This document shows positions 4,873-35,057 of a DNA stretch of 37,924 bases, piece by piece. Made by a program: the position numbers and the translations under genes. Where the stretch lies: contig JBBQPO010000020.1 in the NCBI GenBank assembly GCA_038217285.1, forward strand, positions 1 to 37,924, in the 5' to 3' direction. Origin of the DNA: Chthonomonadales bacterium. Its GTDB lineage: Bacteria > Armatimonadota > Chthonomonadetes > Chthonomonadales > Chthonomonadaceae. The notes below the pieces were generated by a model. It was not told the origin of the DNA and ran no database searches. It saw nothing but the letters and a program-made list of their open reading frames with translations. Every line of letters starts with the position of its first letter. Position 1 is the stretch's first letter.

Positions 4873-4922
4873 GTTGCGCGGGAGCAACGCTCCGTGCGGC
4901 GGGGCGCAAGCCGCCGTAGAGT
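4873..4922 (+). promoter_or_regulatory. GTTGC-N6-GCAAC box plus -10 TAGAGT
   Basis: Perfect box 4873-4888, 28-nt spacer, TAGAGT 4917-4922. Confidence 0.65.
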
Positions 4923-4928
4923 GGAGGA

Positions 4929-5039
4929 GCCGTCCTGGGCCGGGACGAGGCAGCGCGCATATGACCATCAAGGCAGCGCCTCCTGCCCGTTACCGGCTTT
5001 CGGAGGCATTAGACCGCCCTTTTCACGTGCGGTCTTTTT
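4929..5039 (+). ncRNA. candidate antisense (counter-transcribed) small RNA upstream of rep
   Basis: Follows the predicted promoter; hairpins 4931-4947 and 4978-5007, then terminator AGACCGC/GCGGTCT plus T-run at 5011-5039. Confidence 0.45.
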
Positions 5040-5288
5040 GCTGGGACCTGCCGGTTCGGGCGCGAGCGGGCGGGCGATCATGGATGCCAGCTCGGCGTCG
5101 TGCTCCAGTCGGGCCAGAAGCAGGCCGACGCGGCGGCGCTCCGCCGGGCGGAGCTCGGCCCAGAGCAGGCCGCGCATGAGCCTGGACAGCAGGCGGGACT
5201 GGCCGACGAGCAGGCGCAGCTGCTGCTGTGCCAGCATGCGGGCGTCGCGGGGAAGGGAGGAACGGGTGCGAAGGGGAGGGATAGGCAT
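4968..5288 (-). CDS. hypothetical helical protein (~106 aa)
   Basis: ATG 5288 follows the hydrolase stop in the same operon; Leu/Arg-rich helix. Confidence 0.5.
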   Translation of the reverse strand: MPIPPLRTRSSLPRDARMLAQQQLRLLVGQSRLLSRLMRGLLWAELRPAERRRVGLLLARLEHDAELASMIARPLAPEPAGPSKKTAREKGGLMPPKAGNGQEALP

Positions 5289-5314
5289 AAGAAACGTTAG
5301 GGTATGGCAGGCGA

Positions 5315-5845
5315 TCAGGATTGCAGCGGCAGGCGCGTCAGAACGAGCAGGAGGACAGCTATGGCAAACAGGGCGAAGACCGCCTCCTCGTCTGGCGAGC
5401 CCGTGACCAGACGCAGGCGACGGGGAACCAGCCACCAGCGCCGGTAGGGGTCGTTGGGCCAGGCGGGGATGCCCGTGCGGGTACTGGAGTCGCCGGCCAG
5501 GTGGCTCGCGTATCCCAGCCACAGCGCCAGGGCGGCCCATGGCCCCCAGAGGACGGCGACAGGGATGCAGACGAGGGCGAACAGGATCAGGCCGAAGGGC
5601 GAGTGCAGCAGGCCCCGGTGCCCCCACGTCCGGTACGCCAGCGTGGAGAGCAGCGCGAACGGGCGCACGTTTCCGATCCGCAGCGACTTGACGGTGCTTT
5701 CCGCCGCGTCCAGGTCGGGCAGGGGCGCCCCGAAGGCGGCGAGCGCGCACAGGGGAACGACCGTCTGCGGGGTGAGGGCATCGGCAAACGGCGTCAGCAG
5801 CCACAGCGAGGCCGCGCCCAGGAAGAGGTGCGTCCTGCCCATCAT
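5315..5845 (-). CDS. YdjM-like membrane-bound metal-dependent hydrolase
   Basis: Motifs GRTH, LPDLD, HRGLLHS, HLAGD..T..GIP, with hydrophobic segments. Confidence 0.85.
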   Translation of the reverse strand: MMGRTHLFLGAASLWLLTPFADALTPQTVVPLCALAAFGAPLPDLDAAESTVKSLRIGNVRPFALLSTLAYRTWGHRGLLHSPFGLILFALVCIPVAVLWGPWAALALWLGYASHLAGDSSTRTGIPAWPNDPYRRWWLVPRRLRLVTGSPDEEAVFALFAIAVLLLVLTRLPLQS

Positions 5846-6666
5846 TTCCGCTCCTTTGCATCCGCCTCCCTGTCGCCGGACGGGACGGGCGCGAGGCGGA
5901 GGGCGATTTCCAGGGTCAGCATTGCGTTCTCCGGGTTTGGCAGGGCAGGCATGTTAGCCTGAACCCGGCCTCTGGGAGGAGCCCCCAGTCCGGCCAGGAA
6001 CTCGCGCTCCAGCCGGTCGCTCTCCTGCTGGCTGATGGGGCGCATCCCTGAGCGCGGAAGGACTGGGGACGGAGCCGGGGTTGGCGGCATAGCAGGCGTT
6101 TCCGGACGGGTATGCAGCAGCCGGGCGAGTTCCTGCCCGTCTACCAGGCGTACCGGCGCGGCGTGCTGCGCCGACTGCGCGGCCTCGACGGCCGACGCGG
6201 AGAACGTGCCGGTCGTGATGAGCAGGCCTTGCGTCGCGCCCAGACGCAGCATCGTGCCGCGCAGCTCATCGACAAAGGATCGGGGTACGCTTGAGCGGTA
6301 CTGCTTCACCTGCGCGATGACCAGACCGCGCGCCAGCCGCGTCGGCGTGAACATGCGCAGGTCGTACCCTCCGTGCGCGTTCCGGCCCTTGCCGTGACCG
6401 TGCATGGCCTTCATCGCCTGCACGTTCGCATAGCCGAGCGTCTCCAGCATCCGGGCGACGGTCCGGGCGAACTCGGGAAACGGCATGTCCAGCAGGGCCG
6501 CGATCTCGCACTCTCCAGGGGCGCGGCTTACGGCCGACCGCGTCGGCGCAGCCATCTCCTTCACGGGAACCGAGCTGGACGCCGCACGTCGGAAGGCCCT
6601 GCCAGGCGACGGGGCGGGTTCCTGGGAGAGGCTAGGAGGGGCAGGAAGGAAGCGGTGGTGGGTCAT
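5842..6666 (-). CDS. Mrr-like restriction endonuclease domain protein
   Basis: GGYDL...IAQVKQY...VDELRG...GLLITTGTFS...VRLVDGQEL fits Mrr_cat (D..QxK); flanked by Pro-rich tails. Confidence 0.85.
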   Translation of the reverse strand: MTHHRFLPAPPSLSQEPAPSPGRAFRRAASSSVPVKEMAAPTRSAVSRAPGECEIAALLDMPFPEFARTVARMLETLGYANVQAMKAMHGHGKGRNAHGGYDLRMFTPTRLARGLVIAQVKQYRSSVPRSFVDELRGTMLRLGATQGLLITTGTFSASAVEAAQSAQHAAPVRLVDGQELARLLHTRPETPAMPPTPAPSPVLPRSGMRPISQQESDRLEREFLAGLGAPPRGRVQANMPALPNPENAMLTLEIALRLAPVPSGDREADAKERK

Positions 6667-6732
6667 GGGAGCGAGGATTTATAGGCAGGGAGGGAACGGG
6701 GATATCGGCTCACAGGGTGCGGCGGAGTCAGG

Positions 6733-7215
6733 TCATGTTGCCTCCTCCAGGGGGGATGAGCGGAGGGCAGAGGCCGCGCCGGCCGTGCCTGCGACCGCGG
6801 AGAGCGTCCATGCGCCGGAGCGAAGATGCCTGTACTCGGGGCGCAGCGTGTCCTCGTCGCTGTCGTACGCCTGCGCTGGCAGGCATCCGCCGCAGCCGCA
6901 CAGGGCGCAGACGCTTGCGGTAGGGAAGATACCGTCCGGCGAGAAGACGTCTGCCAGGTCCAGAGGGCGGTCCAGGCGTCGGGAGAGCGCGGTCACGACG
7001 CCGGCCATGACCGGAAAGGTGGGCGCGGACTTTCCCGACAGCAGCCGACAGACGGTGGAGCGCGACACGCCGACTTCGCGCGCGAGGCGCACCTGCCCTC
7101 GGAACGTGAGCCAGGGGACGTGGAGCATGATCGCGCCGACGCGGTTGTGAAGCGGGCGTTGCAGGCGCCCGGTCGTCAAGGGAAACACCTTCGCAGCGGG
7201 GGCAGGCACAGCCAT
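6733..7215 (-). CDS. XRE-type HTH protein with C-terminal CxxCGCxGC cluster (copy 1)
   Basis: QVRLAREVGVSRSTVCRLLSG HTH; PTASVCALCGCGGCLP. Confidence 0.8.
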   Translation of the reverse strand: MAVPAPAAKVFPLTTGRLQRPLHNRVGAIMLHVPWLTFRGQVRLAREVGVSRSTVCRLLSGKSAPTFPVMAGVVTALSRRLDRPLDLADVFSPDGIFPTASVCALCGCGGCLPAQAYDSDEDTLRPEYRHLRSGAWTLSAVAGTAGAASALRSSPLEEAT

Positions 7216-7241
7216 GGCGTGGAATTACGGATAACGCTCCC

Positions 7242-7344
7242 AATATTGCCTGGAACCGAACTAAAAGCGAACATTGTTGCGAGGTGGCAACGCAGCTGCG
7301 GTCTGGCAACGGTCCTTTCGATGTCGGGTTAGGTTCGCTAGATT
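7242..7344. promoter_or_regulatory. tandem GTTGC-N6-GCAAC boxes with divergent -10 elements
   Basis: Boxes 7276-7291 (perfect) and 7295-7310 (GCTGC); TAGATT 7339 on + and AATATT 7247 on -, each with a 28-nt spacer. Confidence 0.6.
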
Positions 7345-7446
7345 TGCACTGGACAGGGTCCATGGAGACCAGGATACCGAACTAAAACCAAACATAAATC
7401 CCCGTACCGACGAGGCATGAAAATCCGTAGCCACTCCAGAGTTTCC

Positions 7447-7767
7447 ATGGATCTGCCCACTCCGACGCCTGAAGAAGCGCAACAGTTCCGGACCTTGTAT
7501 GAGGCTTATTTTGATGTACGCTTGAATCCCGCAGCGGCCTTGAGCCTGCTATGGGTGTGCTTCGCATCTCCGCCCTCACCTTTACCCGCGATGAGGTGCT
7601 TTCTTTGCGCCCGCGAGTCCGAGGAGGGCAAAAACCGCCAGGCGCAGTCGATCGGAGATCAGATCGCGGAGCCGCGCCAGCGGTATCCTGACATGGATGT
7701 CCCCCACGTTCTTGAGGAGGCGCGCACGGGCAAGGAGCCGGGGGAGTGGTGCGGGAAGCAGGCATGA
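7447..7767 (+). pseudogene. degenerate copy of small ORF plus serine recombinase N-terminus
   Basis: MDLPTPTPEEAQQFRTLY aligns with MNLPIPNAQEVAEFRRLY (8902); MRCFLCARESEEGKNRQAQSIGDQ aligns with MRYALYARKSTEGDERQSSSIADQ (9051); truncated. Confidence 0.8.
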
Positions 7768-7809
7768 CGGAATGCTAGGGGATTGGAAGAAGGGGGCGGG
7801 CATGCGGCA

Positions 7810-8226
7810 TCAGTCCATAAAACCTCCTTTCTGCGGCCAAACTGGTTCACGGGCTCGCGTTGGAAGCGCACCGCCGCTCACGAGCGTGCGGAACTCCGGC
7901 TTCAGGCGGCACTCCGCGTCGTAGGCCGCTTCCGGCAGGCAGCCCCGGCATCCGCAGAGCACGCATACCGACGCGGTGGGGTAGGTCCCGTCGAAGGAGA
8001 CCAGCTCGCGCGGATCAAGCCTGCGGCCCAGGCGCTTCTCCAGGGCAGCGGTAACCGCCACCGCTATGGCGAAGGAGGGCGCCGCCTTCCCGGCCACGAG
8101 GCGACTGACAGCGGAGCGGGAAACGCCCGCGTCTGCGGCCAGGCGGGCCTGGCCCTGGAAGCTGTAGACAGGGATGTGTTCCATGACGCTGGAGATACGA
8201 TTTTCGAAGGCTGGTAGCGGTGCCAT
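7810..8226 (-). CDS. XRE-type HTH protein with C-terminal CxxCGCxGC cluster (copy 2)
   Basis: QARLAADAGVSRSAVSRLVAG HTH; PTASVCVLCGCRGCLP; clear paralogue of 6733-7215; RBS GAAAGGGGGA. Confidence 0.85.
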   Translation of the reverse strand: MAPLPAFENRISSVMEHIPVYSFQGQARLAADAGVSRSAVSRLVAGKAAPSFAIAVAVTAALEKRLGRRLDPRELVSFDGTYPTASVCVLCGCRGCLPEAAYDAECRLKPEFRTLVSGGALPTRAREPVWPQKGGFMD

Positions 8227-8301
8227 TTCCCCCTTTCGTATGTGACTGCTTGGATGTCTGGAACGTGCGGGGAAGGATACGGCGCGCCCCTTTCATGAAG
8301 A

Positions 8302-8351
8302 AGGGTAGATCCTTTCGGCGTGAGGCGCCCATGGGATTGCCTGGATGCAAC
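8302..8351 (-). promoter_or_regulatory. box ATTGC-N6-GCAAC plus -10 TACCCT
   Basis: Box 8336-8351, 28-nt spacer, TACCCT on - strand at 8307-8302, pointing into the 8226 gene. Confidence 0.6.
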
Positions 8352-8452
8352 GCCTCCCGATGGTAGCGGGAGGCCATACCTGGGATCGGTCATCCGCCTT
8401 ACCTCGGCGGTATCCGCCGGGGGCGTTGCTGTCCGCTCGCCGCTCTGCTAGC

Positions 8453-8752
8453 ATGGTCCACACAGAGTTCACGTTCCCTTCATGTCCTATAGGAGATGGC
8501 AACGTTCCCGACCGACCGCTCATTCGCCCTCTCATGCTCCCTATCTCCATTCAAGCCCTGCACCTGATCGAGCGCGAGGCTCCCGACTTCCGGGAGGCGG
8601 TCCTGCACGCGAAGGCGGCCTTCCGCAGCTTGCGAAAGACCCCACAGCTCTCTGTGCGCCTGGAGCGTTTCCACGACGATCCGTTCCTGCTCTACGCCTG
8701 CCTCTGGTTCGCCCTCTCTGAGAACGTGGAGATCCGCTTCCTGGTGAGATAG
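8453..8752 (+). CDS. hypothetical protein (start uncertain, 8453 or 8534)
   Basis: GC3-biased ORF; TTGCTG-N17-TAGCAT promoter-like sequence at 8426-8454. Confidence 0.5.
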   Translation: MVHTEFTFPSCPIGDGNVPDRPLIRPLMLPISIQALHLIEREAPDFREAVLHAKAAFRSLRKTPQLSVRLERFHDDPFLLYACLWFALSENVEIRFLVR

Positions 8753-8845
8753 TCCCCGTACGCCTGGATCGGCATATAGAGCGCCAAACTTGACAGACCG
8801 CCCTCGATTCCGTTGAATCGACTCAGCAGTCGGGACGTGGGAGGC

Positions 8846-8895
8846 GATGCGTATCCGCAACGCCACGCGCGCGGGACCACGCACTGTGCAAGGCT
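8846..8895 (+). promoter_or_regulatory. box GATGC-N6-GCAAC plus -10-like AAGGCT; probably a leaderless transcript
   Basis: Box 8846-8861, 28-nt spacer, hexamer 8890-8895, ATG at 8902 with no RBS. Confidence 0.5.
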
Positions 8896-8901
8896 GGCGC
8901 C

Positions 8902-9114
8902 ATGAACCTGCCCATCCCCAACGCCCAGGAAGTCGCTGAATTCCGCCGTCTCTACCAGGAGCGGCGGGGCGTCACGCTCGGCGACCAGGAAGCCCTTGAC
9001 CTCGCTACCCGGTTCCTCCACTTCTACTTCTTCTGCGTAACCCCGCCCCCATGCGATACGCCCTCTACGCACGAAAATCCACCGAAGGCGATGAGCGCCA
9101 GTCCAGTTCCATAG
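8902..9114 (+). CDS. small recombinase-associated protein (70 aa)
   Basis: Conserved in the second copy at 7447; overlaps the recombinase start in another frame. Confidence 0.7.
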   Translation: MNLPIPNAQEVAEFRRLYQERRGVTLGDQEALDLATRFLHFYFFCVTPPPCDTPSTHENPPKAMSASPVP

Positions 9115-10760
9115 CGGACCAGAAGCGCCGCGCCCTGGAGATCGTCCGCGCCAAGGGTATCCACGAGGTCGTTATCATCGAGGAGTCCCGCTCGGCCAAG
9201 GAGGAGGGGCGCCCGGAGTTCCGGAGGATGCTGGCGATGGCCGACGCCGGGGAGATCGACGGCATCCTGGCATGGCATCCGGACCGCCTCTCCCGCAACG
9301 AGATGGACGGGGCGGCGATCACGATGCGCCTGCGCAAGGGGATCCTCAAGGACATGCTGTTCGTCGAGTACTTCTTCCACAACTCGCCGGAGGGGATCAT
9401 GATGCTCCAGATGGCCCTGTCGCAGAGCCAGTACTACTCTTCCAAGCTGGTGATCGACGTGAATCGCGGCCTGCGCAGCAAGATCGAGATGGGATGGTCT
9501 CCCCACAGGGCTCCGCCGGGATACGTCAACAACACGAACGAGCTGAAAGGCCAGAAGACGATCTCTCCCGACCCTGTCCGCTTTCCTATCCTGCGGCGCG
9601 CCTTCGACCACGTCCTCTCCGGCGGCTACACGCCCGCGCAGGTATTGCGGCTCCTGAACGGGGAATGGGGCTATCGCACCCCGCTCACCCGGAAGCAGGG
9701 GGACATCCCGATGACCAAGGCGAGCTTCTACCGCATGCTGCTGAACCCGTTCTACGCCGGGTTCTTCGTCGAGCGGGGAACCCGGCACAAGGGAAGCCAC
9801 CGCCCCATGATCACGCCGGACGAGCACCGCAGGGTCAAGGGGATCCTGGGCGTCAAGGAGCGCCTGCAGCCCAAGCGCCATGCCTTTCCTTATACCGGCG
9901 CTATCCGCTGCCTGCAGTGCGGCTCCCTTATCACGGCCTACATGACTACCAACCGCTACGGGAAACAGTATGCCTATTACCGCTGCCTGCGCTGCACGGG
10001 GCACAACGTCTCCGAGCGCATCCTCCAGCGGCAGATCGACGCGGAGGTGGCGCGCATCCATGTCGTCGAGCCTGAGTTCCGGGCGTGGGCGCAGGAGGCG
10101 CTGGATCGCTTCTGGCAGGAGGACCGGGGTACGGACCGCTCGGTCCAGGAGCAGCAGGCCGCGAGCCTGGCGTCCATCGGGCGGCAGCTGGAGGCGCTGC
10201 TTACCGCGCTGACGAAGGGACTGGTAACGGAAGGGGAGTACGCGCAGAGGAAGGAGGCGCTGTCCGGCGAGCGCGCCCGCCTGCAGGAGGCGACAGTATC
10301 CGACCAGGAACGGGAAGGCCAGGCCCGTTCTACGATGGATAGCCTGCTCGGCTACGTGGCGAACGTCGGGGAGTGGATGGCGGACGGTCCTCCGGAGCAG
10401 CGGCGCGCCTGCCTGCGGTCATTCGGATCTAACTTTCGGCTGGACCGCAAGAAGTTGCTATGGGAGCCCCATTCCCTGCTCGTGCCGGTCCGTGAGAACT
10501 ATAAGCGGCTGTCGGTGGAATACTGGGCAATCAAACACAGCAAAACGCTCTCTGAGAGCGCCAAAACGGCACGTTTAGAGAGCGTTCGTTCCACATGGAG
10601 CGACATGTGGTACCTCAATCAAACTTTATGCCTGCGCAAGGGCCTGTCCTTTCCCAGCTTCTTACCCTGTATGCGGCTGACATCGTTGCCAGCCTCGTTA
10701 GGTAACGAATCAGATACGATATTGGCGACCGACGCCCGTAACGTTCAGGCGGTAGCGTAG
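9051..10760 (+). CDS. large serine recombinase (resolvase + recombinase + Zn-ribbon/coiled coil)
   Basis: YARKS catalytic Ser, DRLSRN, PPGY, LLNPFYAG, CxxCG...YYRC; C-terminal tail overlaps the convergent gene. Confidence 0.95.
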   Translation: MRYALYARKSTEGDERQSSSIADQKRRALEIVRAKGIHEVVIIEESRSAKEEGRPEFRRMLAMADAGEIDGILAWHPDRLSRNEMDGAAITMRLRKGILKDMLFVEYFFHNSPEGIMMLQMALSQSQYYSSKLVIDVNRGLRSKIEMGWSPHRAPPGYVNNTNELKGQKTISPDPVRFPILRRAFDHVLSGGYTPAQVLRLLNGEWGYRTPLTRKQGDIPMTKASFYRMLLNPFYAGFFVERGTRHKGSHRPMITPDEHRRVKGILGVKERLQPKRHAFPYTGAIRCLQCGSLITAYMTTNRYGKQYAYYRCLRCTGHNVSERILQRQIDAEVARIHVVEPEFRAWAQEALDRFWQEDRGTDRSVQEQQAASLASIGRQLEALLTALTKGLVTEGEYAQRKEALSGERARLQEATVSDQEREGQARSTMDSLLGYVANVGEWMADGPPEQRRACLRSFGSNFRLDRKKLLWEPHSLLVPVRENYKRLSVEYWAIKHSKTLSESAKTARLESVRSTWSDMWYLNQTLCLRKGLSFPSFLPCMRLTSLPASLGNESDTILATDARNVQAVA

Positions 10761-11300
10761 CAATTCCGTGCTAACCTTGAAATGGTCGCACATCCTGTCC
10801 CGCGACCACCCTCCGGCAGCATGGTACGCCAAGGCTGGACGCGGCAGCAGAAGGCAGCCTGCAAGCCAGTTCGCCTCTGACTCCTGGACTTCGTTGAACG
10901 AACGGAACGCTACGCCAATTTCGTCCATCATCAGCAGCTGGGCTGGCACGTGCTTTCTGATTATGTGCGCCAGTTCGTGCATGAGGTCGCTGACCTGTCT
11001 GGCGGGGACGTGAGAAGGATTGAGGACAACGACGTCCTTGCTCGCCGCCCGCACCGTTACCGCTGACCACTCGTCCCCTTCAGGCGACACGAGATAGCTC
11101 GCGGCGTCAACGCTCAGGCCGGGCACGTCCCCCGGGTTCCACACAAGAACGTCGAGATGCTTGGCAAGTACGGTAGGGGATAACGGCTCGAATTGTTTCA
11201 GGTTCAGGCTTGATCGTACCGTAACCGCTGTGTTCTCCGACCACGTCTTGAAGCCGCGCTCAAATTTTGTCTGCTGACTGTCTGTGACTGCCAGATTCAT
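10710..11300 (-). CDS. ImmA/IrrE-family Zn metallopeptidase (CapP-like)
   Basis: HELAH (HExxH) and QESEANWLAGCLLLP; overlaps the XRE gene stop. Confidence 0.9.
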   Translation of the reverse strand: MNLAVTDSQQTKFERGFKTWSENTAVTVRSSLNLKQFEPLSPTVLAKHLDVLVWNPGDVPGLSVDAASYLVSPEGDEWSAVTVRAASKDVVVLNPSHVPARQVSDLMHELAHIIRKHVPAQLLMMDEIGVAFRSFNEVQESEANWLAGCLLLPRPALAYHAAGGWSRDRMCDHFKVSTELLRYRLNVTGVGRQYRI

Positions 11301-11659
11301 CCCTGAGTACCCTGCTCCATGGCGCGCTGCACCGCTAGTATTAGTTCAGCAAGTCGCTGCGCCGTTTCTGTATTCATGGTCTTTTCTGCTCGGAAGTGCG
11401 CGAACACGGCTGGTCCAAATCCAGCGGGAGTCTCTTCAGCGGAGCTTGTGGGCATCGCGCAGCCCAGCACTTCTCCTGCGTCTATGCCAAGCCATAGGCA
11501 GATCTTCGCGAACGTATCTAAGTCAGGTTGCTTGCCTGACTCGACCCGGCTCAGGGTGGCGGCGCTGGTGCCTATTTCAGCTGCCACGGCGCGAATGCCG
11601 CGGTTGCCCCTCTTCTCTTTGAGCATCGGCCCAAGTTGCTCGAGCGTGATTCGACTCAT
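11297..11659 (-). CDS. XRE HTH repressor (CapH-like)
   Basis: GIRAVAAEIGTSAATLSRVESGKQPD HTH; immediately upstream of the peptidase and divergent from the defence operon. Confidence 0.9.
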   Translation of the reverse strand: MSRITLEQLGPMLKEKRGNRGIRAVAAEIGTSAATLSRVESGKQPDLDTFAKICLWLGIDAGEVLGCAMPTSSAEETPAGFGPAVFAHFRAEKTMNTETAQRLAELILAVQRAMEQGTQG

Positions 11660-11678
11660 ATTTTGTCCTTTTGCGGGT

Positions 11679-11716
11679 GTTTCACTATTGCAACAGTGTA
11701 TTATATACGGTACAAT
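11679..11716 (+). promoter_or_regulatory. sigma70-type promoter of the MBL operon with an overlapping palindrome
   Basis: TTGCAA-N17-TACAAT (11688-11716); TGTTTC-ACTATT-GCAACA overlaps the -35. Confidence 0.6.
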
Positions 11717-11832
11717 ATGTATGACTAGTAAGACATCGTCTCATTAAGATACGCGTCCATCTTACCACATTCCTGCATTAAGATACTAAGACATGAGTTC
11801 ACTAGCCCGTACGCTTGCCTGAGCAAGGAGAC

Positions 11833-12957: not shown

Positions 12958-12961
12958 CCAG

Positions 12962-24510: not shown

Positions 24511-24521
24511 CGCGCCTACCG

Positions 24522-26639: not shown

Positions 26640-26672
26640 GGACGGCTTCTCGCACGTGAAAGGAACCCGCCT

Positions 26673-27002: not shown

Positions 27003-27156
27003 AACGAACAAAAGGTTAGGAAAGCGCTTGCGACGCCCGCCTAACCCTTTATCAAAATGGAGCAGACAAACCTTGAGCCGTTGTCTGCTCCTATTATACC
27101 CCGGATCGGGGAGAAAAGGAGCGAAAAAGATGCGGATCGGACAAAAAGAACGGGAA

Positions 27157-27429
27157 ATGCCGCAGATCACGCTGACGCAGGCGGGGAAGGAAAGCGTTGT
27201 CCTGCGCACGCTGATCCGACGGGCGATCCCCATGCTCGCCAACCCGGAGCGCCACCCGGCACACGAGCGCAGGGAGCTTGCCCAGAACCTGTGCGCCGTC
27301 CTGGAGATAACGCTCTCTGAGGAGGATGCTGAAGAGCGGGACCCCGGTCCCTGCGACCGGGACGCCCCACGGGAACGGGCAGAGGAACCTTACGAGCCGG
27401 GCTGCCTGCTGGAGATGCCGGGAGCATGA
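27157..27429 (+). CDS. hypothetical protein (~90 aa)
   Basis: Co-oriented ORF whose stop overlaps the next start (ATGA); start uncertain. Confidence 0.55.
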   Translation: MPQITLTQAGKESVVLRTLIRRAIPMLANPERHPAHERRELAQNLCAVLEITLSEEDAEERDPGPCDRDAPRERAEEPYEPGCLLEMPGA

Positions 27430-27578
27430 CCTACCGGAAATACAAGCGGCGCTTCTGGGTCGTGCTGGACGCGGACGAGAGCATCGTGGTCGTCTGCGTC
27501 TACAAGAAGGGGGCGAAAGAGGTCGTGCGCCGTCTGACCTCGCTTCGCAAGTCAACCGAATCCGAAGAGGCTGCCTGA
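27426..27578 (+). CDS. 50-aa small protein not in the ORF track
   Basis: MTYRKYKRRFWVVLDADESIVVVCVYKKGAKEVVRRLTSLRKSTESEEAA; ATGA coupling; strong GC3 bias. Confidence 0.7.
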   Translation: MTYRKYKRRFWVVLDADESIVVVCVYKKGAKEVVRRLTSLRKSTESEEAA

Positions 27579-27607
27579 CAGCCCCTTCAACGACACAGCC
27601 ACATCCG

Positions 27608-27649
27608 CCCTGCCGAACAGCGATACGCTCTTCGACAGGGTTCTTTTTT
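27608..27649 (+). terminator. intrinsic terminator
   Basis: Imperfect stem CCCTGCCGAACAGCG/CGCTCTTCGACAGGG followed by TTCTTTTTT. Confidence 0.65.
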
Positions 27650-27668
27650 CCGATAGGAGGGACGACGA

Positions 27669-28100
27669 GTGATACCGCCAGATCTGAACGCGGCGATACG
27701 AGCCGCTCAGGGTGCGCTGATGTGCGTGGATACCGTGCAGGTGAAGGCCGTCCGCCTGAGAAACGCCGGGAACGGCCTGCTGGAGGAGGCGCGAACCGCC
27801 CTCAGCTTCCGCTACCCGGACCTTGCGCTGGCCTATATCCGCAAAGCGGAGGCGCTGCTCCAAGCAGTAGACCGGTCCGCGTTCTGCGTCCCGGAAGTTC
27901 AATTTCCGCCCGCTCTCAGAGCGTTGCGGGATGCTAGGCGCCTACTTATGGAAGCATACCCCGGTCTGCCCGCAGTCGGGCACCTCACAGGAGACACCGT
28001 CCTGGAACGACTACTGGCAGATGCGACGGGTAACGGGACGAAGGCAAGGAACGACCGCTCTGATGCCCTGGCGGACTTCACTAGGAGGACTGAGGGATGA
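27669..28100 (+). CDS. hypothetical protein (143 aa)
   Basis: AGGAGG RBS before GTG; ATGA overlap with the next gene. Confidence 0.7.
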   Translation: MIPPDLNAAIRAAQGALMCVDTVQVKAVRLRNAGNGLLEEARTALSFRYPDLALAYIRKAEALLQAVDRSAFCVPEVQFPPALRALRDARRLLMEAYPGLPAVGHLTGDTVLERLLADATGNGTKARNDRSDALADFTRRTEG

Positions 28101-28525
28101 CACAACAGCGTACGCACGGCATTGCTACCGACAAGTATGACCGTCCATCCGCCGTAGAGGAGGCGATCGACAGCATGGACCTGGAGCCGATCCGCCGCCA
28201 GATAGGCGCGGGACTGAGCGAGGAACAGTGGTGCCGGTCGCATGCCAACTGCCGCTACGTCCACTGCTATACGTTCTTTCCAAGCCCCTACGCAAAACTG
28301 GCGGGCTTGGACGACACGGTCGAGGAGCGCTATACCGTCTGCACCGGAAGCGCCAGACGGAGAGACGTGCAGGGTGCCGAGGCGCGCTCCGGCATCGAGG
28401 ATGACGACGCCTTCTTCCTCCGGTTCGGGACACTGGAAGAGGCGGTCGCGTTCTGCCTGTACGACGACCTCGCGCCAATGGAAATCGAACTGTACCGAAC
28501 ACCCCGGCCCGTCTCCGCCTCGTAA
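28097..28525 (+). CDS. hypothetical protein (142 aa)
   Basis: Coupled start with upstream GGAGG/GAGG; acidic. Confidence 0.7.
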   Translation: MTQQRTHGIATDKYDRPSAVEEAIDSMDLEPIRRQIGAGLSEEQWCRSHANCRYVHCYTFFPSPYAKLAGLDDTVEERYTVCTGSARRRDVQGAEARSGIEDDDAFFLRFGTLEEAVAFCLYDDLAPMEIELYRTPRPVSAS

Positions 28526-28592
28526 GGAGGCTGCGGGCCATGACCCGGCGCTGTGCCAGAAGGACAGCGCCGATCCAGAAAGTGAGGAACCC

Positions 28593-29063
28593 ATGCGAGA
28601 GTACACGCCGCTCTTTGTCGGCTATGGGACTTTGGAAAAATGGATGCAGTCGCTGCTCCCGGACAGGCCGGTCCTCGCGATGCCGCTGGTCGAGCCCGGA
28701 CCGGAACAGTCCGGCATGCGGACAGACACCCTCGCCGTGGTCTGCCAGCAGATCGATGCGGACGGCCATGTCCATTACTGCCGCCTGCGGGCAGCCAGCC
28801 TGACCCGCTGCTGGGGCGAACCGTTCTCTGCGGACTGGCGGGAGCGGGAAGCGGCCTGGCGCTCGCTGTGGGACGCCGTGCAGGAGATCCTCCGGGAGCG
28901 CGGACTGACGTACCGGGGCGCGACAGTGGCACCGCCGCCACTGTTGCGGTTCCTGGAAGCGCAGGCCGAAGGCATCGCTTTCGATCCCGCCGCGAAACGG
29001 TTCGTGTGCCAAAGCGCAGAGATAGCGAGACCATCATTCATCGAAGGGGAACTGAAGCGATGA
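28593..29063 (+). CDS. hypothetical protein (156 aa)
   Basis: GAGGA RBS before ATG 28593; ATGA overlap with the next gene. Confidence 0.7.
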   Translation: MREYTPLFVGYGTLEKWMQSLLPDRPVLAMPLVEPGPEQSGMRTDTLAVVCQQIDADGHVHYCRLRAASLTRCWGEPFSADWREREAAWRSLWDAVQEILRERGLTYRGATVAPPPLLRFLEAQAEGIAFDPAAKRFVCQSAEIARPSFIEGELKR

Positions 29064-29368
29064 GCATCCTTATGGAGCAGTACGACCAGACACGCGACGA
29101 CTTCCCGCAAGCAATCGTGCTGATGCGGGTCGGGGACTTCTTCGAAGCCTACGGCGAAACGGCAGCGCAGCTCGCGGAGACGCTTGGGCTTACGCTCACC
29201 CAGCGCGAGGGAGGCCCAATGTGCGGAATTCCCCACCACATGGCCGAGAAGCGGGTGGCACAGCTTGTCGCCAACGGCAGGCAGGTCGTTCTCATGGAGC
29301 AATCCGAAGATCCGCGAGGAAAGCCTCTTGGCGATGTCGCGCGACACTGTGTGCAGTTCAACCCATAA
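29060..29368 (+). CDS. stand-alone MutS domain I (mismatch-binding domain) protein
   Basis: MEQY...IVLMRVGDFFEAYG...LGLTLT...PMCGIPHH...LV..G..V...EQ; 102 aa with no ATPase. Confidence 0.9.
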   Translation: MSILMEQYDQTRDDFPQAIVLMRVGDFFEAYGETAAQLAETLGLTLTQREGGPMCGIPHHMAEKRVAQLVANGRQVVLMEQSEDPRGKPLGDVARHCVQFNP

Positions 29369-29622
29369 CCTACTGATTTCGGAGCACCGGACAGGGGTAT
29401 ACGATGCGAGTAGAGGCGACGCCGTCACAGAGAACGGGCGCTTCCAGAACATGGTCGCTCAGGAGCACCAACCTTAGCGCTTCCCCGGTGCCGCAAGAAG
29501 AGGCGCGGCACCCGTACATCATCCGCCCGTATGCCGAATCTTGGCATACGGGCTTTTTCCTGACGTTCCAGGGACCTCGCGGCCCTCGCTGCAGACTATC
29601 GAGCCCGCGTGTTGCAGGATAG

Positions 29623-29890
29623 AAGGCAGCCGCTTCGCCTACGTACGGTTCTCCGGAGCATGATGCCCGCCTCTCCGCTTGGCAGGGATGCCAGATCTTC
29701 GCAGACTTTTTCTTTTTTACGGGCCGGGCGACGCTTTGCCGTGGTAGCCTACGTGTGTATCTGGAAACGTTCGCCGTGCCGGGACGTGCCGCTGACAGCA
29801 ATAGGAAGAGACGACGGAGGCGACTGTCGTGCACAATCGGTGCGTCGGGTGTGTCCTTTCTCCTTGTCGTTTCGCGGCGGGTATGCGGAG
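29623..29890. other. putative oriT region
   Basis: Non-coding gap before the mob operon; GCAC-AATCG-GTGC hairpin followed by GTCGGGTGT (29831-29852) resembles MOBF nic sites; T-rich tract. Confidence 0.5.
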
Positions 29891-29898
29891 GGAATTCC

Positions 29899-30411
29899 AT
29901 GTTCAGCAAACAGGAAGCGGCGGACTTCCTCGGTGTCAGCAAACGGACGCTGGAACGCTATGCCAGTCAGGGCCGCGTCCGGGCCATATACAGGAAAGGC
30001 CGGGGCCATCCGGTCCCTGAGTACGAAGAAGAAGACCTTTTGTCCCTCAAAGCAGGCCTGGAACCGGCGCTGTCGCCTCCTCCGGGGAAGGCCCTTCCAT
30101 CATCGGAACCGCTCAGCTTTCGGCTGGACGAGCACTACCTCAAGCGGCTCGGCGAGGAAGGCGAAAAGCGGGGAATAAGCGCAGGAGCCTACGCCCGTTT
30201 GCTGGTGATCGACGCGCTGGAGGAGGGAGAGCGGGAGCGGCTGCGGGGCGATGTGGCGGAGCTAAGGCGGCTTGTGGTGCTGATCGGCGAAGACCTGGCG
30301 AGCGCGACGCTAGCCCTCCTCGTCCACGGCGGCAACGTCGAGCAGGAACCGGAAGCGCGGGACTGGGTGCTCGCGAACCTCCTGACAGCGGGCGGGCGAA
30401 AGAAGGAATAG
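29899..30411 (+). CDS. relaxosome accessory protein: excisionase-like HTH + ribbon-helix-helix
   Basis: SKQEAADFLGVSKRTLERY (HTH_17); LSFRLDEHYLKRL...RGISAGAYARLLV (RHH); GGAGG RBS. Confidence 0.8.
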   Translation: MFSKQEAADFLGVSKRTLERYASQGRVRAIYRKGRGHPVPEYEEEDLLSLKAGLEPALSPPPGKALPSSEPLSFRLDEHYLKRLGEEGEKRGISAGAYARLLVIDALEEGERERLRGDVAELRRLVVLIGEDLASATLALLVHGGNVEQEPEARDWVLANLLTAGGRKKE

Positions 30412-30415
30412 GAAG

Positions 30416-32833
30416 ATGCTCTCGGTAGCGGCGATGGGAAGCGGGCAGGGGGAATACTATATCGGGCTCGCACAGGCGGACTATTACGCGGCAGGCGGCG
30501 AACCGGAGGGGCGCTGGATAGGCCGAGGAGCCGAAAGGTGGGGTCTCGCCGGAACGGTCGAGGCGGAAACGTTCCGCAACCTGCTGACCGGCCGTTCCCC
30601 AGACGGGCAGAGGAGCCTGACCGGAAAGGGGAACGGGCGTGGCCATCGTCCAGGATACGACCTCACGTTCAGCGCCCCGAAGAGTTTCAGCGCCCTCTGG
30701 GCGGTATCCGGACCGTCGCGCCAAAGCCTGTTGGAGAGCATCCATACTCGTGCCGTGAAAACCGCGATCGACTATATCGAGGACAAGGCCGCCTATACCA
30801 GGCGTGGCAAAGGGGGCGTGAAACTGGAGCGTGTGGGCCTGGTCGTCGCGGCGTTCGAGCACGAATCGTCCCGGTCGCTGGACCCGCAGATGCACACGCA
30901 TGCCCTTGTTATGAACGTCGCCCCCAGGGTGGACGGGACGACGGGCACGATCGAGAGCTTTCTGCTCTTCCAACACAAGATGGATGCCGGAGCGATCTAC
31001 AGAGCGGAACTGGCGGCGCTGCTGGCAGGAGAACTCGGGCTGGACTGCGTTCCGGACGGCACCTCCTTCCGGATCGAAGGGGTGCCGCAGGAACTGTGTC
31101 AGGCGTTCTCCAGGCGCCGGGAGCAGATCCTGGAAGCGCTGGATCGGCGGCGCGCGGAGGGCGCGCGGGCCGCCGCCACGGCGGCACTGGATACGCGGGC
31201 CGCAAAGGTGTCTGTATCGCACGAGCGCCTGCTCGGCCAGTGGCAGGCCGTCGGGCGGGGCTACGGCTTCGCCCAGGACCGGGCGGACCGGCTCAAAGGC
31301 GGGCAGGTACGGTATCCGAGCGTCAGCCCAGAAACCGTCGCCCGCATGGCCGTCGGGGAGATCACGCAGCGCCAGAGCTGCTTCACCGAGCGCGAAGTCG
31401 TGCGGAAGGTAGCGGAACTGGCCCCGGTTTGCGGCATGGACGCCGCCGCTGTCCGGTCAGCGACTACAACGTACCTGCGCTCGCCGGAAGCGGTTCGCCT
31501 GGGGCCTCCCGCTCCCGAAGCGATCTATACGACGCGGGAGATGCTGGACCTGGAGGAAGGCATGCTCGCCTGCGCCAGGCGGCTGCGCATCGGGGCGTTC
31601 CATAGGCTGAAGGAAGAGACGCTGCAGACGGTTTTCGCGGAGCGCCCGCGCCTGGGATACGAGCAGCAGAACGCCCTGCGCCATATCGCCCGGAAACCGG
31701 GAAACATCCATGTTATCTCCGGGCTCGCGGGCACCGGCAAGACCTCCCTGGCAGAAGCGATGCGCCTCTGCTTCGAGCGGGAAGGGTACCGGGTTGTCGG
31801 GGCAGCGCCGTCAGCGAAGGCGGCACGGGGCTTACAGGAAGGGGCAGGCATCCGGTCGGACACCCTGCACCGGACGCTCTTCGACCTGAGCCACCCGGAT
31901 TGCGGGCTGTCGCCCAAAAGTGTGGTCGTCCTCGACGAAGCCGGAATGGTCGGAACCCGGCAGATGGCAGAACTGCTCGACATCGTGGAGCACGCAGGCG
32001 CGAACCTCGTCCTGATCGGCGACGCGCGGCAGCTGCAGCCGATCAATGCCGGAGGGGCATTCGCGGCCCTTGGTGCCGAACTCGGCCAGGCGGAACTCAC
32101 CCGCATCGCGCGGCAACACGAGAAATGGCAGCGTGAGGCCGTTGTCAGCATGGCGGAAGGCGATGCGGCGGCAGCGCTCGGGGCTTATGCGGATCACGGT
32201 CAGGTCCGGATCGAGGAGGACCGGATCGGCGCGATGCGCGCCCTGATCGCGGACTGGCGGAAAGAGGACGCGCTTCCGGAGAAGGACCGCCTGATCTTCG
32301 CGGCGACGAATCGGGACGTGGGACTTTTGAACCTGCTCGCCCAGCGGGCACTCCAGGAGGACGGCGCGCTCGGGCAGCGGAAGGCCGCGGTCGGCGACGT
32401 GACGGTCTTCGAGAACGACCGCGTGTTGTTCGTCAGGAACGACCGGGTGCGCGGCGTGCAGAACGGATCGCTCGGCACGGTCTCCAGCATCGGCAGCGGC
32501 ATCGTGGCGGTCCGACTGGACTCGGGCACGGTGGTGAGCTTCCCGGCGGAGGCGTACCGCCACCTGCGCCTCGGCTACGCCGTGACGACCCACAAGGGCC
32601 AGGGCGTAACGGTCGAACACGCTTCCGTGTTGCTTGGTGCGGACATGCAGGACCGGGAGCTCTCCTATGTCCAGCTCTCCCGCTCGCGCGGGGGAACGAT
32701 GCTGTACGCGGACCGGGATTCGGCGGGCGAGGAACTCGCTGACCTGGTAGGGCGGATGGGCGTCTCGCACCGGAAGGAGATGGCCCTGGATACGCTGGCG
32801 CGGCAGGGACAGGCCCTGTCGCTCGCACGGTAA
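30416..32833 (+). CDS. mobF: MOBF (TrwC-like) relaxase-helicase
   Basis: EYY...DYY, GYDLTFSAPKS, HESSR..DPQMHTH; helicase GLAGTGKT, LDEAGM, GYAVTTHKGQG. Confidence 0.95.
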   Translation: MLSVAAMGSGQGEYYIGLAQADYYAAGGEPEGRWIGRGAERWGLAGTVEAETFRNLLTGRSPDGQRSLTGKGNGRGHRPGYDLTFSAPKSFSALWAVSGPSRQSLLESIHTRAVKTAIDYIEDKAAYTRRGKGGVKLERVGLVVAAFEHESSRSLDPQMHTHALVMNVAPRVDGTTGTIESFLLFQHKMDAGAIYRAELAALLAGELGLDCVPDGTSFRIEGVPQELCQAFSRRREQILEALDRRRAEGARAAATAALDTRAAKVSVSHERLLGQWQAVGRGYGFAQDRADRLKGGQVRYPSVSPETVARMAVGEITQRQSCFTEREVVRKVAELAPVCGMDAAAVRSATTTYLRSPEAVRLGPPAPEAIYTTREMLDLEEGMLACARRLRIGAFHRLKEETLQTVFAERPRLGYEQQNALRHIARKPGNIHVISGLAGTGKTSLAEAMRLCFEREGYRVVGAAPSAKAARGLQEGAGIRSDTLHRTLFDLSHPDCGLSPKSVVVLDEAGMVGTRQMAELLDIVEHAGANLVLIGDARQLQPINAGGAFAALGAELGQAELTRIARQHEKWQREAVVSMAEGDAAAALGAYADHGQVRIEEDRIGAMRALIADWRKEDALPEKDRLIFAATNRDVGLLNLLAQRALQEDGALGQRKAAVGDVTVFENDRVLFVRNDRVRGVQNGSLGTVSSIGSGIVAVRLDSGTVVSFPAEAYRHLRLGYAVTTHKGQGVTVEHASVLLGADMQDRELSYVQLSRSRGGTMLYADRDSAGEELADLVGRMGVSHRKEMALDTLARQGQALSLAR

Positions 32834-32846
32834 GGGAGGATCGGAT

Positions 32847-34481
32847 ATGGAACAGATACAGTCGTGGCTCTGGACGAATGTCGTGATACCGTTCCTGGTC
32901 CTGCTCGGCATCGTCGCGGTCGTTTACCTGCTGTCCCTGTCGAAGGAAGAGAAGGAGGACGACACGTTCATCCGCGGGCGGAAGCTTGTTTCCCTGGAGC
33001 AGGCGCGGCAGGCTGCCCTGAAGATGCAGCCGAAAGGGGGCGAGCGCCTCTGCTGGGGCGGGCTCGACCTTCCCATGTCCGTGGCGACAACCCACTTCGC
33101 CGTCGCCGGCTGCTCCGGAAGCGGCAAGACCCTGACCATCCAGCTCCTGCTGAACTCGGTCCTGCCCGGGATCGCCCCTGGCAGCGACAGGCGGGCGCTC
33201 ATTTATGATCCGAAGAGAGACGCCATGGGCCTGCTGCACGGCATGGGCCTGCAGGTGCCGGTCCGCACCCTGAACCCCTTCGACGCCAGAGGGGTGGCAT
33301 GGGACCTTGCAAAAGACCTGACCGGACCGTCCACGGCCTTCCAGATGGCGTCGCTGCTGATCCCTGCGGACCCGCATGCCAGCCAGCCGTTCTTTACCAA
33401 AGCGGCCCAGCACCTCTTGTACGGGGTACTGCTGGCGCTCATGGAGCAGGCCGGGAACGCCTGGACGTTCGCCGACCTGGTGTACGCCATGCAGTCGCAG
33501 GCGCGCATCCGGGAACTCCTTGCCCTCTCGCCGCGCACGGAGGAACTCATCGACCTGTACCTCGGCGTTCCCGAGAGGGCCGCCGACATCCTCGCCACGG
33601 TCGCCACGAAGATGGCGCCCTACGGCTTCGTCGCCGCCGCCTGGAGCCGGGCGGAGGAGAAAGTCAGCCTGACGGACTGGCTGGCCGGGGAATCCGTCCT
33701 GGTGCTCGGCAGCGACGAGGCCAACCGCCAGGCGATGGGCGCGATAAACCAGGTCATCTTCAAGCGCGTCAGCGAGCTGGTCCTCAGCCAGGCCGAGACC
33801 ACGGAGCGCCGGACTTGGATCGTGCTCGACGAGGCCAGGCAGGCAGGCTTTCTGGACGGGCTGGACAGCCTCCTCGTGGCCGGCAGGTCGAAAGGTGCCG
33901 CCGTCGTGCTCGGCTTCCAGGACATCTCCGGAATGCGCGAAGTCTACGGGGACAAAGTGGCGAACGAGCTGGTGGGCCAGTGCGGACACGTGGCGGTCCT
34001 GCGCCTGGCCAGTCCGGCGACGGCGCAATGGGCCGCGGACCTCTTCGGCTCCTACGAGCGCTACGACGAACATGCAAGCGATACCGCGAGCGAGGGCGAC
34101 CACGGGGACACCTCCAGCACGACGCACAGCAGGCATCGCGCCAAACGGGAGGCGGTGCTCGGCTCGGAGTTCCTGAGCCTGCCTCCGACCTCCCTCCCGA
34201 ACGGCCTCGGAGGCTTCTGCCTCGTGCCGGGGGTGGGCGCCTACCGCATGGCGCTGACGGGCGAGTGGCTGAAAGAGCGGCTTCCCACGCCTGATCCGGA
34301 CGTGCCCGGGTTCGTGCCGCGTCCGGAAGCGGAGCAGCACCTTTCCGCCTGGAGCGCGGAAGACCGTGAGCGGCTCGGACTGAAGGGCGATGCCCCGCAG
34401 AAGGAGCCGGCTCGCAAGGGACGGACGGCGGCCCGCGCAGGGGGCCTGGGCGACCTGAAAGGCGTCCGGCAGGACGGATAG
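32847..34481 (+). CDS. type IV coupling protein (TrwB/TraD-like)
   Basis: N-terminal TM helix, Walker A GCSGSGKT, IYDPK, NPFDAR, Walker B IVLDE, GRSKG...GFQ. Confidence 0.93.
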   Translation: MEQIQSWLWTNVVIPFLVLLGIVAVVYLLSLSKEEKEDDTFIRGRKLVSLEQARQAALKMQPKGGERLCWGGLDLPMSVATTHFAVAGCSGSGKTLTIQLLLNSVLPGIAPGSDRRALIYDPKRDAMGLLHGMGLQVPVRTLNPFDARGVAWDLAKDLTGPSTAFQMASLLIPADPHASQPFFTKAAQHLLYGVLLALMEQAGNAWTFADLVYAMQSQARIRELLALSPRTEELIDLYLGVPERAADILATVATKMAPYGFVAAAWSRAEEKVSLTDWLAGESVLVLGSDEANRQAMGAINQVIFKRVSELVLSQAETTERRTWIVLDEARQAGFLDGLDSLLVAGRSKGAAVVLGFQDISGMREVYGDKVANELVGQCGHVAVLRLASPATAQWAADLFGSYERYDEHASDTASEGDHGDTSSTTHSRHRAKREAVLGSEFLSLPPTSLPNGLGGFCLVPGVGAYRMALTGEWLKERLPTPDPDVPGFVPRPEAEQHLSAWSAEDRERLGLKGDAPQKEPARKGRTAARAGGLGDLKGVRQDG

Positions 34482-34529
34482 GAGAGAAGGGCCCGGGAAC
34501 GGCCCATTACTTACGGAAGGAGAACGCTA

Positions 34530-34847
34530 GTGAACGATCTGACGGAACGCTTCAGGGAGGCCACGTGGCCGCACCGCATCGCCATGGTCATCTGCGCCGC
34601 CGTACTGGTCGGCGGGGCAGTATGCGCCATCAGGGTCTGGGTCATCCCGCTGTGCCTGCGCGCCTATTCCTTCCTGGTCGAGGCCGCGATCGGCTACGGC
34701 TTCCTGACGCTGATGGCCTCCATCTTCTCCCCGGCGACGGGCAAGAAGATGGCCGAGCTCGGCGTCGCCGTCTTCGAGCGGCTGCTGGTCGACCCGCTGC
34801 TCATGCTTTTCCGGGCCGGGAAGAAGAAGAAAAAGGATGTCCGGTAA
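34530..34847 (+). CDS. small membrane protein
   Basis: AAGGAG RBS; two hydrophobic helices and a basic tail. Confidence 0.7.
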   Translation: MNDLTERFREATWPHRIAMVICAAVLVGGAVCAIRVWVIPLCLRAYSFLVEAAIGYGFLTLMASIFSPATGKKMAELGVAVFERLLVDPLLMLFRAGKKKKKDVR

Positions 34848-35007
34848 CTGCCTTGAGGGCGGGGCTAACCGGTACTGCGGGCCCCGCCCGGCCGACCGCC
34901 GATCAAGCCTGGCGGCAAGGGAAAAAGCATGGGCGTGACGACGCGCTTGCCATGCTAGCTCCCTCCTGGGTCGCCCGTGCCTCCTTCAGGCCTATACAGC
35001 GCGGCGC

Positions 35008-35057
35008 GTTGCAGGAAAGCAACGCTGATGGGAAACAGCGCCTTTCCCGCCTATGAT
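35008..35057 (+). promoter_or_regulatory. GTTGC-N6-GCAAC box plus -10 TATGAT upstream of xis-int
   Basis: Perfect box 35008-35023, 28-nt spacer, TATGAT 35052-35057. Confidence 0.7.

Follow-up and report, generated by a model that had tools for sequence, protein, structure and literature searches.

The 37,924-nucleotide contig JBBQPO010000020.1 of a Chthonomonadales bacterium (phylum Armatimonadota), whose whole length we refer to as the window, contains the palindrome GTTGC-N6-GCAAC (here called the box) at a fixed distance upstream of nine putative promoters of a mobile element. Judged from sequence and its conservation, the box is a real, conserved, promoter-linked regulatory motif. On balance, we favor a reading in which nine weak promoters of the sigma-70 type carry the box as an upstream element, dimers of an element-encoded helix-turn-helix protein family that we call HTH-Cys are predicted to bind it, and HTH-Cys likely activates these promoters together. 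HTH-Cys is an uncharacterized, well-supported candidate and the likely regulator of the boxes. A repressor or dual role for HTH-Cys is a serious rival to activation, which we infer from promoter architecture. The original prediction, made from the letters of this stretch alone, had proposed that one dimeric activator coordinates an element-wide regulon through the box; new in the present analysis are the conserved architecture, the likely factor, its fixed nuclease-operon partner, and the weakness of the core promoters.

The box is enriched in the window and lies between genes

Perfect boxes were found at 4873, 7276, 25316, and 35008, compared with a mean of 0.06 in 100 shuffles of the window, none of which reached four. 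This bears out the earlier estimate that well under one perfect match would arise by chance; the G+C content, put at ~65% in that estimate, measures 62.8%. With one mismatch allowed, 11 boxes were observed against 1.35 expected. These comprise the nine sites of the original prediction, all refound as four perfect and five one-mismatch boxes, and two further matches at 11679 and 36742. Neither of the two further matches has an nAnnnT hexamer at 27 to 29 nucleotides (nt), and the box at 11679 overlaps the -35 element of a separate promoter with a 9/12 consensus match (TTGCAA-17-TACAAT); this extra pair fits chance, given the 1.35 expected. All 11 boxes lie outside the open reading frames (ORFs) accepted as genes, as had been said of the nine.

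The window is the entire contig C20 of a 6.21-Mb genome in 459 contigs (G000). Of 11 perfect boxes in the whole genome, 4 lie on this 37.9-kb contig, and the other 7 compare with ~7 expected by our own arithmetic from base composition. None of these seven has TAnnnT at 28 nt on either strand, so that the motif is not equally frequent within coding sequences or genome-wide. We also scanned the genome with a scoring matrix trained on 31 sites, all from other genomes. The six best matches all fell on the window contig, one of them being the reverse reading of the 35008 site, and the reversed genome, serving as a control, gave a top score of 20.8. By the same matrix, the relaxase/coupling-protein operon has no box of at least 14 bits, and the regulon is therefore not strictly element-wide. 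What stands of the proposed regulon is a nonrandom class of promoter-linked sites with an architecture conserved in relatives.

Box, -35, and -10 elements keep a fixed spacing

Each of the nine boxes is followed on the gene-facing strand by an nAnnnT hexamer after 28 nt (27 nt for 23046), and all hexamers named earlier are present at these positions (Table 1); seven of the nine have the form TAnnnT. The spacing was analyzed across 65 distinct boxes with at most one mismatch, picked by the box alone from the window, from contig C2 of the same genome, and from loci found solely through protein searches, and read in 130 orientations. TAnnnT occurred 25 times at offset 28 and 0 to 3 times at each other offset from 10 to 49, and nAnnnT occurred 45 times at offset 28 and at most 13 times at other offsets. 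Information content was found in the box, in a frequent GC after it, and in a T and a G at +21 and +23 (0.9 and 0.8 bits). Because these last positions lie exactly 17 bp upstream of the -10 hexamer, we read them as a weak -35 element. The resulting layout, in which the box is followed after 5 nt by a weak TTG-type -35 and this after 17 nt by the -10, is found again in related elements of other Armatimonadota genomes. The original prediction reported no good -35; a weak T-n-G does occur 5 nt after the box and 17 nt before the -10, with the window sites matching TTGACA at only one to three of six positions. With a transcription start ~7 nt past the hexamer, the box would extend from about -56 to -41. 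Spacers and flanks share no sequence among boxes, and only the box, T-n-G, and -10 positions are informative. AGAGC past the -10 is present in only 8 of 66 sites, chiefly at orthologous operons, and is thus not a general feature.

The predicted targets (Table 1) retain most of those proposed earlier, namely both HTH-Cys genes, the serine-recombinase unit and its truncated copy, three operons (23194, 24654, and 25461 onwards), and xis-int. The exception is rep. The 4873 promoter is directed away from the rep-like genes, which speaks against the suggested antisense RNA at rep and leaves the suggested control of replication unsupported; candidate targets of this promoter are short ORFs or an RNA that would overlap the 3' end of the YdjM operon in antisense orientation. 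The boxes at 7276 and 7295 stand back to back with 3 bp between them, and the same pair occurs at two related loci (L064 and L061). At 8846, the mRNA is possibly leaderless because an ATG at 8902 lies only 6 nt past the hexamer. A terminator-like hairpin at 24480-24503 ends 19 nt upstream of the 24522 box, as expected if this box starts a separate transcription unit.

The architecture recurs in related elements

A second, related mobilizable element lies in the same genome on contig C2 (~22000-37700; L009, L085). Its gene set includes homologues of the window genes for a 286-amino-acid (aa) and a 404-aa protein, of the 23194-25106 genes, of the DUF932 gene (75% identical), and of the MutS domain I gene, which stands alone on both elements (C2 36954-37664; 70% identical). 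It carries six or seven box-like promoters, whose boxes are degenerate (e.g., GGTGC-N6-GCACC). One of these promoters, at C2 24107, is orthologous to the 23046 promoter and shares its 27-nt spacer and a similar sequence past the -10. The C2 element might be controlled in trans from the window contig. Relatives were also found in five other genomes. Orthologous promoters in these relatives share the layout, although the distal half-site is often degenerate. No perfect box occurred in 229 kb of Chamaesiphon loci with DUF932 homologues, indicating that the box tracks the regulator and not DUF932.

Other occurrences of the promoter were noted outside these operons. On contig C381 of the same genome (~2651-3447), a box-like promoter (score 20.9) precedes a homologue of the window gene 4057-4827, and the window box beside that gene is oriented the opposite way. 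Perfect box promoters also precede several copies of one 72-aa ORF (MSQVVIEVRGG...) in two other genomes (G030 and G008; L039, L040, L048, and L058). Within the predicted 5' leader of the DUF932 gene, at 25420-25460 of the window, a conserved CTTGACAA(T) and a short hairpin lie ~30 to 45 nt upstream of the start codon. The same arrangement occurs upstream of DUF932 homologues at L002, L006, L009, and L012 and might act as a second promoter or as an RNA element of the leader.

HTH-Cys is the likely box-binding factor

A box with at most two mismatches lies 105 to 181 nt upstream of all 14 HTH-Cys genes examined in relatives, a set that includes the window's own two and the near-duplicates L063 and L073, and 7 of these boxes are perfect. 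Upstream sequence of at least 200 nt was available for 21 metagenomic homologues. Within 300 nt, the box is perfect in 6 of them and has one mismatch in another 6; chance, estimated from the shuffles with one mismatch allowed, is ~0.01 per 300 nt.

The gene and the promoter also co-occur across genomes. We searched for a composite pattern of the exact box, N28, and TAnnnT, with the reversed pattern as a control. In 61 related genomes, the composite had 22 matches in 11 genomes (one match being the copy on contig C168 of G002, 100% identical to window 181-9340), and the reversed pattern had 7. It was present in seven of eight genomes with HTH-Cys and in 4 of 53 without, at one match each in the latter. 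Across 301 genomes of the phylum, 45 composite matches in 31 genomes stood against 33 for the reversed control by our table count. Here the composite occurred in 16 of 41 genomes encoding HTH-Cys (30 matches) and in 15 of 260 others (15 matches), and all six genomes with at least two matches encode HTH-Cys. A Fisher test gave a P value of 6e-8 for this co-occurrence, treating as independent genomes that are related and so are not. Furthermore, the box varied with the recognition helix. Of 38 homologues with R or K at the column of R37, 24 had a box with no more than one mismatch in the 400 nt upstream, compared with 1 of 16 homologues with P, D, A, Q, S, or T. The palindrome, with half-sites 11 bp apart, is compatible with a dimeric helix-turn-helix protein, and it is this dyad symmetry that suggests dimer binding by HTH-Cys.

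HTH-Cys belongs to the XRE-type helix-turn-helix proteins (Pfam HTH_3, E = 1.6e-6), and its two window paralogues are 53% identical over the core. A conserved SVCELxGCxGCLP follows the helix-turn-helix (C88-x4-C93-x2-C96 in paralogue 1), and C88, C93, C96, and H17 are invariant in 12 family sequences. We speculate that the three conserved cysteines, perhaps with His17, hold a metal or sense a signal. An AlphaFold2 model had a mean predicted local distance difference test score of 78.8 and was confident over the helix-turn-helix. Its structural neighbors in a Foldseek search of the PDB were generic XRE domains, with XRE and controller (C) protein folds at E values of 0.02 to 0.07; C.AhdI, C.BclI, and C.Esp1396I were among the ten best structural matches, all with E values above 0.01. 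Foldseek searches of the PDB and ESM Atlas returned only generic XRE helix-turn-helix neighbors and nothing accounting for the cysteine part, and a PDB sequence search with HTH-Cys gave no match better than an E value of 0.01. The family has at least 504 members at an E value of 1e-5 or better, none of them functionally named.

By gene order, HTH-Cys has a fixed partner, as its gene comes first in an operon that also encodes an Mrr-type nuclease and YdjM. A downstream ORF was present at 25 of 29 loci, of which 19 were scanned and six, cut by contig ends or short, were left out. Mrr_cat was found in 17 of the 19 scanned ORFs, fused to YdjM in 7 of these 17, and YdjM alone in the other 2. The nuclease domain shows similarity to PDC-S02, a candidate defence gene, and to methyl-directed enzymes of type IV. 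In many HTH-Cys promoters, a direct repeat, GTTCGG-N5-GTTCGG or a close variant, lies just upstream of the -10 (window 7248-7275, minus strand, and 7311-7338; L090, L091, L099, L109, L112, L121, L124, and L064). This repeat could be a second operator.

Weak core promoters favor activation

Host promoters provide a standard for the nine core promoters. A 10-12/12 match to TTGACA-N16-18-TATAAT lies within 120 nt of 27 of 50 host tRNA genes, 11 of which have a perfect match, compared with 3 of 500 random windows. In the nine box promoters, 3 to 8 of the 12 positions agree with the consensus (mean, 5.8), no better than random windows, and no promoter with a match of at least 9/12 lies near them. 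The divergent promoters at 7276 and 7295, like those at L064 and L061, each have their own box at the fixed distance. The poor core promoters, the rigid spacing, and these separate boxes of divergent promoters together favor activation. In the mechanism that we propose, HTH-Cys from the two minus-strand genes (7810-8226 and 6733-7215) would bind the box as a dimer, one monomer per half-site, and the promoter-proximal monomer would help RNA polymerase onto an otherwise poor promoter. Positive autoregulation of HTH-Cys would result, and the nuclease module, recombinases, and transfer-associated genes would be expressed in coordination.

Several points weigh against this reading. No box with at most one mismatch lies within 300 nt of 9 of the 21 metagenomic homologues, two of which carry a box farther out, at 311 and 481 nt, and 25 of the 41 phylum genomes with HTH-Cys lack a perfect composite match. 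We found no HTH-Cys gene on the related C2 element, where the boxes are degenerate. Co-occurrence and covariation could stem partly from shared ancestry of elements that carry both gene and box. The box centre, near -48.5, is at neither of the classical activator positions, -41.5 and -61.5. Among the sequencing runs listed for window 4000-13900, all are sediment-metagenome DNA and none is RNA. Finally, repression is the commoner role of XRE proteins, and repressors acting globally from fixed promoter positions are frequent in mobile elements.

The same protein and boxes would also fit a rival in which HTH-Cys is a repressor, or changes from activator to repressor as its concentration rises, and we regard this as possible if rather unlikely. 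The recombinase, excision, and transfer-associated genes would then be silent until a signal inactivates HTH-Cys through its cysteine motif. XRE-family regulators of mobile elements are usually repressors, and the box upstream of the regulator's own gene in every homologue examined in relatives would suit negative autoregulation equally well. Mobile-element promoters under repression are usually strong, whereas those with the box are very poor next to host tRNA promoters. In addition, the box overlaps neither the -35 nor the -10, and its spacing is rigid at 28 nt despite wholly divergent spacer sequences. The GTTCGG repeat between -35 and -10 could be a second, repressing operator, like OR of C-protein systems (PMC2175313).

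It is improbable that a different protein binds the box, whether the 404-aa protein with a C-terminal XRE domain or a host factor. The 404-aa protein is encoded on C2 as well, where its gene and the neighboring 286-aa gene lie directly upstream of the 23046-orthologous promoter; both genes are also present in three other genomes (G019, G053, and G060), and C2 has box-like promoters with no HTH-Cys gene. However, in the 61 genomes the composite motif occurs in only five of eight with a relative of the 404-aa protein. One genome (G013) has four matches to this protein and no motif, and another (G002, 98% complete) has four composite sites and no match to the protein; given this distribution, we consider the 404-aa protein the less likely factor. 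A host factor is disfavored by the motif rate in phylum genomes without HTH-Cys (15 in 260), which is not above that of the reversed control (33 in 301). We rejected Xis and the HTH_17 protein encoded upstream of the relaxase as factors, as neither has a homologue in C2 or related loci. An alternative sigma factor was also rejected because GCAAC, 28 nt from the -10, is too far away for a -35 and T-n-G occupies the normal -35 site. It is very improbable that the boxes are nonregulatory, as a duplicated promoter cassette, a small repeat, recombinase sites, or a transfer origin. Some promoters are clearly orthologous between elements, such as those at 23046 and C2 24107, but the flanks and spacers of different boxes have no common sequence, and the boxes always point toward a gene and precede unrelated genes in many genomes whose linked regulators are ~50% identical.

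Beyond joint activation by HTH-Cys, we can offer only a speculative and doubtful larger picture. HTH-Cys may be a new class of signal-sensing master activator, of controller type with a Cys3(His) metal or redox center, that first served to switch a type IV-like Mrr-YdjM nuclease module and was later adopted by mobile elements across Armatimonadota as a shared means of turning on their excision, recombination, and transfer-associated genes. It would then also drive the C2 element in trans.

Gene content of the window

A Pfam scan of 61 window ORFs described a mosaic of mobile and defence genes (Table 1). One mobilizable block comprises the DUF932, MutS domain I, TrwC relaxase, coupling-protein, excisionase-type, and tyrosine-integrase genes. 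The serine-recombinase unit is present as one intact and one truncated copy. The M78/XRE pair, with CapP/CapH-like matches, is divergent from the metallo-beta-lactamase-fold and E2/E1/JAB genes, and the whole stretch resembles a ubiquitin-like defence module; consensus promoters of its own lie at 11688-11727. A single protein unites an OB fold, an HD domain, and a LexA-type S24 peptidase domain. At 20351-22862, DDE transposase ORFs separate the 404-aa gene from the 23046 promoter; since the homologues of the 404-aa and 286-aa genes directly adjoin the orthologous promoter on C2, an insertion sequence apparently split the unit in the window. The complete 9,160-base contig C168 of G002, a genome of the same genus, is the copy of window 181-9340 mentioned above; either both assemblies contain the same element or both derive from one population. 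A blastn search of a plasmid collection with window 22900-30500 gave no match, and an Rfam scan of the window found no family at its gathering score.

Table 1. Box promoters and genes of the window
Feature	Position	Strand	Remarks
Promoter 4873: perfect box GTTGCGCGGGAGCAAC, 28 nt, -10 TAGAGT (4917-4922)	4873-4922	+	Matrix score 21.1
Promoter 7276: perfect box (7276-7291), 28 nt, -10 AATATT (7242-7247)	7242-7291	minus	Matrix score 26.5; predicted to drive HTH-Cys paralogue 2, Mrr, and YdjM operon
Promoter 7295: one-mismatch box GCTGCGGTCTGGCAAC, 28 nt, -10 TAGATT	7295-7344	+	Mismatch scan; predicted to drive leader ORF and truncated recombinase remnant
Promoter 8336: one-mismatch box (8336-8351; GTTGCATCCAGGCAAT on minus strand), 28 nt, -10 TACCCT (8302-8307)	8302-8351	minus	Score 23.4; predicted to drive HTH-Cys paralogue 1
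Promoter 8846: one-mismatch box GATGCGTATCCGCAAC, 28 nt, -10 AAGGCT	8846-8895	+	Matrix score 20.7; predicted to drive 70-aa leader ORF and serine recombinase
Promoter 23046: one-mismatch box GTTGCATCGCTGCACC, 27 nt, -10 TATACT	23046-23094	+	Predicted to drive 23194-24454 operon
Promoter 24522: one-mismatch box GTTGCGTCCTCGTAAC, 28 nt, -10 TACCTT	24522-24571	+	Predicted to drive 24654-25106
Promoter 25316: perfect box, 28 nt, -10 TACTCT	25316-25365	+	Matrix score 21.7; predicted to drive DUF932 gene and later genes
Promoter 35008: perfect box, 28 nt, -10 TATGAT	35008-35057	+	Matrix score 23.8; predicted to drive xis and tyrosine integrase
rep-like and DNA-binding ORFs	3507-4827	minus	Pfam
YdjM membrane-protein gene	5315-5845	minus	Pfam; 3' of HTH-Cys paralogue 2
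Mrr_cat nuclease-domain gene	5842-6666	minus	Pfam; 3' of HTH-Cys paralogue 2
HTH-Cys paralogue 2, XRE-type	6733-7215	minus	160 aa as called; first gene of nuclease operon
Leader ORF fused to ~50 residues of serine-recombinase N terminus	7447-7767	+	Remnant of duplicated unit
HTH-Cys paralogue 1, XRE-type	7810-8226	minus	138 aa; proposed box-binding factor
70-aa leader ORF	8902-9114	+	
Large serine recombinase	9051-10760	+	Pfam
M78 peptidase and XRE pair	10710-11659		M78 at 10710-11300
Metallo-beta-lactamase-fold gene and E2/E1/JAB fusion	10710-15226 (whole stretch)		Adjoining M78/XRE pair
404-aa protein	17406-18620		XRE domain at C terminus
OB-HD-S24 fusion	18849-20300		
DDE transposase	20725-22162	minus	
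Box-driven operons of mobilizable part (predicted)	23194-29368	+	Include unknown proteins, DUF932, and MutS domain I
DUF932 gene	25461-26639	+	
Stand-alone MutS domain I gene	28640-29368	+	
TrwC relaxase	30416-32833		
Coupling protein	32847-34481		
xis, excisionase-type HTH_17 gene	35127-35360	+	
Tyrosine integrase	35389-36630	+	

Implications and comparison with known systems

The analysis gives a precise promoter architecture and names a candidate regulator family of at least 504 members, all uncharacterized. The concrete regulon predicted here links genes for excision and recombination and transfer-associated genes with a nuclease module, and HTH-Cys with its box would be a ready-made inducible promoter-regulator pair for a phylum with few genetic tools. 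The near-perfect TTGACA/TATAAT elements at host tRNA genes make promoter prediction practical in these genomes. As far as our searches reached, we found no literature on the regulation of Armatimonadota mobile elements or on the motif.

The original prediction compared the system in role with SetCD/AcaCD, the FlhC/FlhD-type heteromeric master activators of SXT/R391 elements and IncC plasmids. The likeness in role holds, in that one element-encoded factor would act through a shared box before excision and transfer-associated operons. It does not extend to the proteins, since no FlhC/FlhD family matched in Pfam among the 61 window ORFs scanned, and both box sequence and box position differ. KorA and KorB of IncP plasmids likewise have palindromic operators at a fixed position in many promoters of one element. 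Unlike the factor proposed here, these proteins come from other families and repress promoters that are strong.

Lambda cI at PRM and ImmR of ICEBs1 offer another parallel, as XRE/cI-type dimers placed just upstream of their own -35, where stimulation is possible, that also control the excision genes of the element; a cI-sigma contact is mentioned in PMC2504287. Unlike cI, LexA, and ImmR, HTH-Cys has no S24 self-cleavage domain (HTH_3 only) and no adjacent ImmA-type protease. The S24 domain of the window is in the OB-HD fusion, M78 lies beside another XRE gene, and the M78/XRE pair belongs to a separate consensus promoter region. Nor did we see operators overlapping core promoter elements in the HTH-Cys system.

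The closest analogue is the C protein of type II restriction-modification systems (C.PvuII, C.AhdI, and C.Esp1396I), closer than SetCD/AcaCD because a small XRE protein heads a nuclease operon and has a box before its own gene. A C-protein dimer bound at the distal operator, which lies immediately upstream of the -35, activates a weak promoter via sigma-70 (PMC2504287 and PMC2175313). HTH-Cys similarly is a small XRE-type helix-turn-helix protein that heads an operon with a nuclease gene and is preceded by a predicted palindromic operator next to the -35. In contrast to the 35-bp OL/OR pair of C-protein systems, two adjacent operators with a conserved central spacer of which OR overlaps the -35, the HTH-Cys promoters have one box of 16 bp that ends 5 bp before the -35, with a half-site of GTTGC rather than GACT; the back-to-back boxes at 7276 and 7295 belong to separate, divergent promoters and hence are not an OL/OR pair. 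No methyltransferase family was found among the 61 window ORFs scanned, so that the partner typical of C proteins is missing, and the nuclease partner has instead an Mrr-type domain, often fused to YdjM. HTH-Cys further differs in an extra C-terminal part carrying C-x4-C-x2-C. Finally, the box of HTH-Cys, unlike the operators of C-protein systems, also precedes recombinase, excision, and transfer-associated operons.

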